Below, piece after piece: positions 57,241-62,295 of a DNA stretch of 64,000 bases (the first letter of the stretch is position 1; every line of letters begins with the position of its first letter). The DNA is taken from contig JAHDBA010000005.1 in assembly GCA_020630615.1 (NCBI GenBank), positions 38,709 through 102,708 of the forward strand. The letters run 5' to 3'. The stretch is from Myxococcota bacterium. Its GTDB lineage: Bacteria; Myxococcota; UBA727; JAHDBA01. The position numbers were made by a program, and so were the translations under genes. The notes below the pieces were generated by a model. It was not told the origin of the DNA. It made no database searches and saw only the letters and a list, made by a program, of their open reading frames with translations.

Positions 57241-60200
57241 ATGTTTGTATCGTTCTCTATTCATCGTTCTAAACATGCACGATGGCTTGCCATGTTATGC
57301 ATCATTGTGTTCTCCAAGGTTGCAGGAGCAGAGCTCAATTTCAATTTCAAAAGAGAAGGTTTGATCTGGCGTATTCACGATAATGCGATGACGAAAGGGG
57401 CAATGGGTTGGGTTGAACTTGGATCTCATCTCGAAGTAAGACCCAGCACACAAGTAGAAATCATTGCACTCAAGCCAGCGTTTGAATCCATCGCTCTCGA
57501 TTGCAAGGGCAAGGCATCGACTCGACTTGAGGTCGAGATCGCTGAAACCACCTACGGGAAAGAAGGAAGATTTTTCGGGAGATTGAAGCCAGGTCTTTCC
57601 AATGCATCTCAGTCGCGGTGGCGACTCAAAAACCAAAGCAAAGGTCAGTTTGAGAGTCAGTGGTTTCATCTCAAAATATTTTTTGACCAAGAGAAGGGTT
57701 CCGACTTAAGTCCCTTTGTTAGAAGCCAATGTCGTATGCTTCGAAGTACACGTGAGCTTTCGAGTGAGAATCACCGAAAGGCTCTATTGGAAACCTTGGA
57801 TGCACTTCCAATTTCCGCACTTCGAAAGCTCTTCAATGTTTTGGGTTGGCAGTGGGTCAATCGTTCCGAGGTGCAGGCTCTTGAAGAAGGCGAGGAAAAC
57901 TCGAAACAAAGTGACATCGAAAAGTTGGATTCAAGTGAAAATACGATACGCCGAATGGCAAAGGGATTGTTGCCGAGACGCATACCCCATGCGCGAGACG
58001 ACATTCCATACATGCCCCACCTCTTCGGGGAAATTGATGCCGGGAGCTATCGTGAACCTGAGGAGGAGCATACTTTCGATATCTTGCCCGGCCTTAGCCG
58101 CATTACGATTGAGCTTCCATGGGATCAAAATTCCGATCAAGACAACGATGTGAAAGATATCGCAAAGTTCGAAGAAGGGCAGCGCTTAAAGCTTTCCCTT
58201 TCAGAAGACGGCAATGACATATGGGCTGAAGCGTATGCAATTCCGCATGACGATGCGAGAGGGCAAAGTCGTGATGTGCCATCATCAACCGACCACGACG
58301 ATCAAAAGATCGATCTGTCGAGCGCTCTCAAATATCGAGAAGACAAAAGGCGGAGCGAAGAAAACAATCCCACCCGTCTTAAACTATCATTCTGGATTTT
58401 TTCCAGCGTAAAGAAAACATTTCAACTCAAATCCGATCAAACGATTGCACTTCGCAACCGTACTTTTGAAACACGTGTTTTAAATCGCGAGCGCTTCAAG
58501 GATGATGAGCTTACATTATTGGTACCGCACTCAACGCATAGCGAAGAACACATCAAAAAACATCATCCGATTGGATCGATGCATGACGTGTTAATAGCGC
58601 AAAACAAGTGGAGTGCCTTCGATGCGCTAATTCCAATGATGGAAGCTTCACCGATGGGGCAAAAAGCATCCCGGCAAATTTGGGAATCCCATGAATATCA
58701 GCAACGAGCCCAACCCGTTGACGAAGCTTCTTCGTATGCACAAGAATTCTTGGTACCCTTTCGCCCGACCTATTGGCGCCTTCTTGAGGGAAGGTTTGCA
58801 AAGGTTTCCAAATTCCCACGCCCCTATTGGATGGACCTGCAAAGCGGAAAACATCAACTCGCTCTCATCTCAAAAGATGAGGAGACCTTAAATCCGAATG
58901 TCTTAAGAGCGACGGAGGGCTCCTCAAAGATAAGTCTTGCCTACATTGGATCACCAGATACGCGTTTGGGCGCTAAAGCATACGCTCGCTGTCGAGTTCG
59001 GGTGAACGAAAACCTTTATGTAATTGAAGTCAAGCCCGATCAAGTTATGCGAATCCCACTGCAGAACAACGAGCGTAGTGCCGAGGTGGAGGTTTTTCCG
59101 GAATGTCATTTTCGGGCATATCAGGACGTCTCCTACGAAGAATATCTGAATACCACCAAACTCTTTTCACGCTTCACGCCAGACCTTCTCGAACCGGGCG
59201 AGTCGTTACGTTTTCACACGACTCAAAGGGGGATCCGAACGTTTGCACTTTCTGTATCAACAACGACTGCAGAGTCGTCGAATGGGCTTTCGATTCACAT
59301 CGATAAGGAAACACAAGATTACAAACTCGACGTGTCCGAGTCTCTGTTGGATGTCAATGATGCTGTTGACGGTGAAGGTATCACCATCGCTAGCCTTAAA
59401 GGCCGAGCAGAGGAAGATATTCAAGAAGTGAAGGTCATGAATACTGGCGCTGGCTCGCTTGCGATTGCAATGTCATGGATTGGGTACCTTGAAAACGAAG
59501 CGCAACCACCAAATGCGAGCGATGATGTTGTTCAGAATTCGATGACGCATTCGGATCTCAAACTTGAGAGCGAGCTTGGTCAAACGAAGGACCCAAATAC
59601 AGAAGAAGAGAAAAAATTTGGGTCACAGAGTTTTGAAAATAAGCTTCAACCGATTTCCTTTAAAATAGCAGAGGAGCTTTCAATATGCGCGAAAGAAAGT
59701 GGTGCGCGTCGATTAAAGGACCTATTGTCGAAAGCCTGTATTCGAAACAATGAAAGGCTTAAGATGTTTTTTTTGGAGCGCTTTGCGTTGTACCTTGGAG
59801 CGAGTTCGTTCGGAGCTGCGCGAGAAGATCTCTCGCGTTTGCGCTCGTTCCCCTTAACACCAAAAGAATTGTTTGAGGTGGAAGACAGCTTTCGCAGTGC
59901 TCTGGCGCGTGAACGCTTGAATAAGAAACGTTTATGGTTCAGCCCAAGCCTTCTTGTGGATGAAGAAAGTGGACGACGATTGACGCAGGAAGCTCTTCAT
60001 TTGACAAATGCGCCCGTGCAGGAGGATAACCTGCTACACCTGCTGAATCGCTCCCTCGAGTTTCAACGAAAACATCGCGACGCATTGGCTGCCAAGACCT
60101 ATTTAAAGTGGCTTGCGATGGCCACATCGGAAAATATCGGTCGTGACAATCCTTTCTTTGAGTTCGGTCACGAACTCTTTGTTAAAGCACAACAGAATGG

Positions 60201-62295: not shown

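Follow-up and report, generated by a model that had tools for sequence, protein, structure and literature searches.

The window analysed here is a 64,000-nucleotide (nt) stretch of DNA from a Myxococcota bacterium (GenBank assembly GCA_020630615.1, contig JAHDBA010000005.1, positions 38,709 to 102,708 of the forward strand). As listed in Table 1, it carries six consecutive genes, g1 to g6, the fifth of which is an open reading frame (ORF) of 1684 amino acids (aa) that starts with ATG and was confirmed as a real gene. We refer to this gene and its product as the giant. Its ATG lies 3 nt past the stop codon of the upstream gene g4, and the downstream gene g6 starts 28 nt past the stop codon of the giant. 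These spacings make the giant an operon-internal gene, and it is translationally coupled inside the operon. The order g1 to g6 is conserved across Myxococcota, with the giant as the fifth gene between g4 and the PgsB-bearing g6.

The preliminary description of this DNA, made from the letters alone, had given the giant an N-terminal signal peptide, and this was borne out. The N-terminus, MFVSFSIHRSKHARWLAMLCIIVFSKVAGA followed by EL, combines a positively charged n-region with an h-region of ~11 residues and an A-G-A site, and it reads as a Sec/signal peptidase I-type signal peptide. Nowhere else in the giant does the 19-residue Kyte-Doolittle hydropathy exceed 1.6, and no further membrane helix was found. 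A signal peptide stands at the start of 12 of 12 orthologous giants, and a lipobox-like Cys was found in 4 of 13 giant orthologues.

An alternating pattern had also been claimed for the last ~300 aa, and this too held. The mean β hydrophobic moment of this region has a z of 4.3–4.6 against shuffles and ranks first among the 300-aa windows of the giant, while the α moment is lowered (z about −2.2). Values of z above 4 for β-alternation are restricted to the last ~300 aa, and the giant has the strongest β-alternation among the cluster proteins. Family-averaged hydrophobicity revealed at least 12 conserved period-2 segments in the C-terminal domain. By eye, ~14 strands were counted in the C-terminal alignment, in which short turns alternate with longer loops; one of the longer loops holds a nearly invariant Asp. 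The composition of the domain differs from that of the rest of the giant in Gly (9.1 vs 5.0%), Trp (5.9 vs 2.1%), Arg (10.8 vs 7.5%) and Glu (2.1 vs 9.7%); it is also richer in Leu and poorer in Lys and Ala. In most orthologous giants the β-moment peaks at or near the C-terminus.

The alternation statistic was calibrated on 34 E. coli K-12 proteins. TamB reached a z of 9.4 and the β-domain of Ag43 a z of 4.75, and the best other (non-barrel) control gave 3.5. Lower values were obtained for OmpA (2.8), PgaA (2.2), TamA (1.8), BcsC (1.0) and OmpF (0.3). On this calibration, the alternation marks an unusually amphipathic β-domain and is alone no proof of a barrel.

Table 1. Features of the giant, its cluster and the remainder of the window. 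Positions are those of the window unless a locus is named.
Feature	Position (nt)	Strand	Extent	Basis or remark
Giant (g5)	57241..62295	+	1684 aa	ATG start
Signal peptide of the giant	57241..57327	+	aa 1–29	predicted cleavage after VAGA; sequence reading
Lineage-variable N-terminal region, mixed or α-leaning composition	57328..61197	+	aa 30–1319	crude propensity map
Polar, acidic linker (...QDDFEASSSIQKAQDGIETELEKRENRSSRSALQSDGDSDSNVLMSNDPLLDES...)	61198..61395	+	aa ~1320–1385	boundaries approximate; sequence reading
Conserved C-terminal β-rich domain, candidate outer-membrane barrel	61396..62208	+	aa ~1386–1656	~12–14 amphipathic strands; β-moment z 4.0–4.6
Tail after last conserved strand (GNADSCWATIEPLDSRLTRFHMGLPKTY) and stop codon	62209..62295	+	aa 1657–1684	alignments
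g1, membrane sensor, CHASE2-type by orthology	48165..50726	+	853 aa	position and BLASTP
g2, tandem PgsC/CapC-like polytopic domain and ~560-aa soluble region	50723..53569	+	948 aa	PF14102
g3, exported protein with N-terminal anchor or signal	53566..56112	+	848 aa	hhalign to g3 family
g4, exported enzyme-like protein	56063..57238	+	ORF of 391 aa	orthologue alignment; true start uncertain
g6, large cytoplasmic protein, cut by window end	62324..64000	+	first 559 aa	BLASTP
PgsB-bearing g6 orthologue	L026:7601-11770
PgsB-bearing g6 orthologue	L004:15876-20480
PgsB-bearing g6 orthologue	L013:9481-13617
PgsB-bearing g6 orthologue	L040:19806-22916
RTX calcium-binding repeats and Peptidase_C25 (gingipain-like) domain	11806..15534	+	1242 aa
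Large DUF4215 cysteine-rich repeat protein	18246..21332	+		E 8e-104
Large DUF4215 cysteine-rich repeat protein	39307..41469	-
Mevalonate-pathway cluster (diphosphomevalonate decarboxylase, polyprenyl synthetase, HMG-CoA reductase, GHMP kinase)	27719..34001	+

Library searches gave no Pfam, NCBIfam or PADLOC match for the giant, in line with the earlier remark that no passenger-domain family could be recognised in it. A word-indexed search of 5.8 billion proteins found only the giant itself, as did an exhaustive phmmer search with aa 485–1684 against 1.84 billion representatives. A profile of six C-termini returned no match despite the existing orthologues, which was taken as a limitation of the candidate step of that search. 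When 13 C-termini were compared with Pfam, the sub-threshold hints comprised two unrelated families and two families of outer-membrane protein (OMP) barrels, namely MipA at E 0.13 and, from an orthologue, OmpL1 at E 0.008.

Orthologues were found through gene position. Loci were gathered from the DNA around g2 homologues and around g4 homologues, and g1–g6 synteny was found at loci L001–L003, L035, L037, L039 and L040 and at the Corallococcus loci. The genes at the g5 position in these loci encode signal-peptide-bearing giants of 1350–1880 aa, and each of the other five window genes (g1, g2, g3, g4 and g6) has its orthologue there, with an order shared by many genomes. The giant is an orphan by sequence and an orthologue by position. 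A profile built from 12 orthologous C-termini picked out the window giant at the corresponding place, aa 1435–1552, with 24.7 bits and an E of 2.7e-7, and it matched no other of the 117 six-frame ORFs of the window. With hhalign, the C-terminal family profile and the window giant were aligned with a probability of 88.6% (E 2.7e-6). A protein without a detectable homologue among billions can still be placed by synteny combined with a profile of positional orthologues.

Between orthologue lineages, BLAST aligned the last 200–300 aa most consistently and often nothing else. At the profile level, homology among the giants of three Myxococcota clades extends over 600–1400 columns. The N-terminal ~1300 aa of the window giant had no significant similarity to any of the clade profiles, to which the low G+C content of the window and the weakness of a single query sequence probably both contributed. 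Familiar Myxococcota are G+C-rich; the window has a G+C content of 46%, within a range of 45–50%. The part of the giant that is conserved family-wide is only the C-terminal domain of ~280 aa with its short tail. In the Corallococcus giants (L003–L021), a hypervariable, indel-rich segment was observed at columns ~900–1100, with a conservation of 0.34–0.75 against about 0.9 elsewhere.

The ending ...GLPKTY named in the preliminary description is present in the sequence, but its aromatic terminal residue does not serve as the barrel hallmark it was taken for. The last conserved strand is SLGVQGVW in the window giant, SLGARWDW in Corallococcus, SIGAKFYF in L040 and MLGVVWNF in another orthologue. 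In every sequence it is followed by a tail of 26–47 aa, usually of the form G-R-(G/R)-L-x-D...P-x-E. The orthologues end in polar, non-aromatic residues (…NATLER, …LTDER, …RRLQP, …GGGP), and the terminal ...KTY of the window giant is therefore no conserved β-signal. The published β-signal consensus is zeta-x-G-x-x-(aromatic/hydrophobic)-x-(aromatic/hydrophobic) (PMC10945584). The last strand fits this consensus fully in Corallococcus and L040; in our own reading SLGVQGVW agrees at 3 of the 4 defined positions, and the terminal HMGLPKTY likewise. A full match was found in only 3 of 13 last strands. The motif is frequent by chance and too permissive for these fits to count for much.

At the head of the cluster, g1 matched its counterpart in L002 by BLASTP (E 1e-6), and the genes at the g1 position in L001, L036, L037, L039 and L040 match CHASE2. 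In g2, PF14102 was found over two stretches (E 1.3e-32, 113 bits against a cut-off of 27), and the equivalog model TIGR04011 scored E 4e-15 with 56 bits, below its cut-off of 96. A search with g2 returned 400 homologues of ~1000–1200 aa. The named ones are from Myxococcota and come from Corallococcus, Sorangium, Haliangium, Enhygromyxa, Nannocystis and many metagenome-assembled genomes (MAGs). The window g2 is 39–45% identical to its orthologues. An AlphaFold2 model of g2 had a predicted local distance difference test score (pLDDT) of 72.4, and its soluble part had no significant or informative structural neighbour.

The product of g3, which across the family is ~850 aa long, had no library match; it aligned collinearly with the g3 family (hhalign probability 94.3%) and showed weak collinear profile similarity to giants (38% and 26% probability). 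With its listed GTG start, g4 would begin 50 nt inside g3, and translation probably starts at a later codon. Orthologues of g4 are ~315–390 aa long and 30–35% identical to the window protein. Their invariant motifs (PHxYxD, HxAD..H, QxHG, GxxNxQ and RFxHxEM) suggest a metal-dependent hydrolase outside the known families, and g4 had no match in Pfam (E ≤ 10), in PDB profiles or in phages (tblastn). A PghP-like poly-γ-glutamate hydrolase, considered because PHxYxD...QxHG resembles the PghP motifs, found no support in these same searches and was dropped, so that g4 stays an unassigned exported enzyme rich in His and Asp motifs. Homologues of g4 outside the cluster and outside Myxococcota, among other neighbouring genes and with no giant downstream, were seen in Dethiosulfatarculus sandiegensis (L016) and at L010 and L018 (Bradymonadales MAG).

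The window g6 matched the sixth genes of L002 (E 1e-35) and L001 (E 2e-30) by BLASTP. Orthologues of g6 are cytoplasmic proteins of ~1400–1550 aa that had no Pfam match. In the sixth genes of L026, L004, L013 and L040, the PgsB model TIGR04012 was found with E values of 1e-58 to 8e-63. The domain lies at aa ~700–1040, with flanks of ~700 and ~350 aa. These matches score 198–212 bits against a cut-off of 222.7 and cover profile positions 5–332 of 380, and the conserved P-loop region reads GGWGxRGKSGTERLK...KTTG...ECMAL. No match to PgsA/CapA (PF09587) was found in g1–g6 or their orthologues.

The cluster is widespread, as the 400 homologues of g2 indicate, and undescribed. Beyond the CapC label, neither Pfam, NCBIfam nor PADLOC covers it, and the literature that was searched contained no paper on the six genes. 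At the Sorangium cellulosum locus L038 (CP162579), only g2 and g3 are adjacent and the other cluster genes are not at the locus, and the cluster can thus be split. In the window as a whole, PADLOC found no defence system. Each of the window proteins tested stood alone in its 90% identity cluster. Two large cysteine-rich repeat proteins, an RTX protein and a mevalonate-pathway cluster lie elsewhere in the window (Table 1). Together with the Myxococcota-type gene cluster, the DUF4215 proteins and the mevalonate genes suggest a divergent relative of Myxococcota with low G+C.

PgsB-like and PgsC-like parts together are the hallmark of a poly-γ-glutamate synthase. In the cluster, the candidate synthase core would consist of the PgsB-like ligase inside the cytoplasmic g6 and the tandem PgsC-like membrane protein g2. 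We tentatively take the giant, with a likelihood that falls a little short of even, to be an exported, outer-membrane-associated subunit of a six-gene envelope system with such a divergent poly-γ-glutamate-type synthase core. Its conserved β-strand-rich tail, a putative barrel, probably holds it in the outer membrane. Among the cluster proteins the giant is the best outer-membrane candidate and no other is plausible: the polytopic g1 and g2 belong to the inner membrane, g3 has a membrane anchor, the exported g4 is a small enzyme and g6 stays in the cytoplasm. The preliminary description had proposed the giant as the outer-membrane conduit or anchor of a putative system, which is plausible and now has a concrete gene context. 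The exported state, the β-rich C-terminus and the operon-encoded system behind that proposal stood, while the terminal β-signal and the analogies to autotransporters and to TamB/AsmA proteins did not.

In the mechanism that we propose, the giant would be exported by Sec, and its C-terminal domain would be inserted into the outer membrane by the β-barrel assembly machinery (BAM) as a barrel of ~12–14 strands. The variable region of ~1350 aa would lie in the periplasm, additionally lipid-anchored in some orthologues, and may reach across to the membrane-anchored g3 and on to the PgsBC-like synthase. A polyanionic polyamide would be made at the inner membrane and would then either cross the outer membrane or be fastened to it, and the exported g4 enzyme may trim or process this polymer. 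The giant would in this respect work much as BcsC or PgaA do in synthase-dependent polysaccharide secretion. That the cluster is an undescribed, diderm-type machine for making and exporting poly-γ-glutamate or a related polyamide, with the giant as its dedicated outer-membrane translocon or anchor, is possible though somewhat unlikely. To our knowledge, poly-γ-glutamate synthesis is understood almost entirely from the PgsBCA/CapBCA systems of Gram-positive bacteria, and we know of no established route by which bacteria with two membranes would carry a polyanionic polyamide of this kind through the periplasm and past the outer membrane. If the proposal is true, the giant would be the first known outer-membrane component for any PgsB/PgsC-type synthase and would define a new family of barrel-terminated exporters. 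The cultivable Corallococcus would then offer a genetic handle on a surface polymer of social, predatory bacteria.

Several results weigh against an outer-membrane barrel tied to polymer synthesis. Sequence and profile searches against the PDB gave no match for the giant, and no hidden Markov model (HMM) match of the giant to any known barrel passed threshold. When the family C-terminal profile was compared by hhalign with the E. coli proteins PgaA, BcsC, OmpA, OmpF, TamA, TamB, Ag43, ElfC and 26 others, none exceeded a probability of 1%. The alternation statistic is high for TamB, which is not a barrel, and low for several true barrels, and a Labilithrix-type clade (L013, L022 and L024) has no raised C-terminal β-moment. 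A single-sequence AlphaFold2 model of the giant was unusable at a pLDDT of 31.6, which leaves the barrel unproven. The β-signal motif is loose, with a background of 0.34 matches per 50 positions, and the match in the window is incomplete. C-terminal barrels do not typically carry a conserved tail past their last strand. The window domain has a net charge of +21, which would suit an anionic polymer, but the family ranges from −9 to +12, and an electropositive lumen was therefore not retained as a family trait. Finally, the PgsB domain is not visible in the window, where the g6 sequence stops about 160 aa short of it.

Some of these points would suit a periplasmic or periplasm-spanning scaffold without a barrel, in which the C-terminus folds into a β-sandwich that is soluble, or else into an amphipathic sheet that stays open, as a groove like that of TamB/AsmA proteins or as a module that binds the polymer. 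Such a giant might be a polymer bridge, chaperone or ruler docking on an unrelated outer-membrane protein. The β-moment is not barrel-specific, as the TamB value indicates, and the polar tail after the last strand, the failure of any barrel family to pass threshold and the lipobox-like signal peptides of 4 of 13 orthologues, which fit a periplasmic lipoprotein, are all consistent with it; the weak similarity between g3 and giants suggests common periplasmic domain types. We nevertheless consider this scaffold rather unlikely. In contrast to AsmA-like proteins, the giant alternates strongly only over its final ~300 aa, the signal peptide is cleavable and is not an N-terminal anchor helix, and no AsmA or DUF490 match was found. 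The ~12–14 long strands, the enrichment in Gly and Trp and the short alternate turns are more OMP-like than sandwich-like, and a giant without a barrel would leave the cluster without an outer-membrane component.

A different role for the same barrel would be that of an autotransporter, moving the N-terminal region of ~1350 aa to the surface as an adhesin, an enzyme or a polymer anchor. The layout agrees with this in its signal peptide, long variable region, polar linker and ~280-aa β-domain, the β-moment is near that of the Ag43 β-domain (4.3 vs 4.75), and the N-terminal region diverges fast between lineages. Within Corallococcus, however, the giants diverge about like their neighbours (83% vs 85–88% identity), which gives no hint of diversification driven by surface exposure. 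Neither PF03797 nor another autotransporter HMM matched the full protein (E ≤ 0.1) or the 13 C-termini (E ≤ 10), and profile similarity to Ag43 was absent. Moreover, the orthologues do not keep the terminal aromatic residue and continue past the last strand into a tail, the lipobox-like N-termini of some of them argue against a secreted passenger, and genes of a biosynthetic operon lie on both sides of the giant. We judge this role very unlikely. A further explanation removes the polymer altogether: the PgsB/PgsC-like proteins would perform some other ATP-dependent amide ligation, for example on an envelope component or a signalling peptide, and the giant would serve as substrate, regulator or structural part of the envelope without a transport role. 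The PgsB and PgsC scores below the NCBIfam equivalog cut-offs, the missing PgsA/CapA homologue, the large unexplained domains in g2, g3 and g6, the CHASE2 sensor at the operon head and the absence of the cluster from the searched literature speak for this explanation. It is quite improbable in our view, since the PgsB profile is covered nearly full-length with the P-loop kept, PgsB-like and PgsC-like proteins occur together, and three exported proteins are co-transcribed with them.

An organisation like that of autotransporters or of TamB/AsmA proteins, which the preliminary description had suggested, was not supported: no HMM match was obtained (E ≤ 10), and there was no profile similarity to Ag43, TamA or TamB. 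With TamB/AsmA-like proteins, the giant shares export to the envelope and strongly amphipathic β-structure. In TamB, however, the best window (z 9.4) lies in the N-terminal half, whereas in the giant the alternation is found in the last ~300 aa only. The giant also has a cleavable signal peptide instead of an N-terminal anchor, and it has no AsmA, AsmA_2 or TamB (DUF490) match. Type Va autotransporters such as Ag43 resemble the giant in the signal peptide, the large N-terminal region and the amphipathic β-domain of ~280 aa with comparable alternation. They differ from it in PF03797 and in a conserved terminal aromatic residue, both of which the giant lacks, and in the C-terminal tail, the lipoprotein-like orthologues and the biosynthetic operon of the giant.

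The exopolymer exporters BcsC (cellulose), PgaA (poly-N-acetylglucosamine) and AlgK-AlgE (alginate) share with the giant a signal peptide, a long periplasmic N-terminal region and a C-terminal β-rich domain. As with BcsC and PgaA, the gene lies inside an operon for an inner-membrane polymer synthase together with a periplasmic processing enzyme; the parallel between BcsZ or PgaB and g4 is by analogy only. Unlike BcsC and PgaA, the giant has no TPR or other recognisable repeats, and it has no profile similarity to these two E. coli proteins. Its putative barrel is shorter (~280 aa and ~12–14 strands, against 16–18 strands in the exopolymer exporters) and is followed by a conserved tail. The presumed cargo of the giant is a PgsB/PgsC-type polyamide, whereas that of the exopolymer exporters is a polysaccharide.

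The cluster shares with the PgsBCA(E)/CapBCA(DE) systems of Bacillus and others a PgsC/CapC-like membrane domain and, in the orthologous clusters, a PgsB-like ligase domain. In contrast to PgsBCA, it has no homologue of PgsA/CapA, PgsE or CapD/PgdS, and its PgsB and PgsC scores are under the equivalog cut-offs. The parts are also arranged differently, with a PgsC tandem joined to a further 560 aa in g2 and with PgsB placed centrally in g6, a protein of 1400–1550 aa. Beyond these parts the cluster encodes a CHASE2 sensor and three exported proteins, the giant among them, and its host is a diderm.

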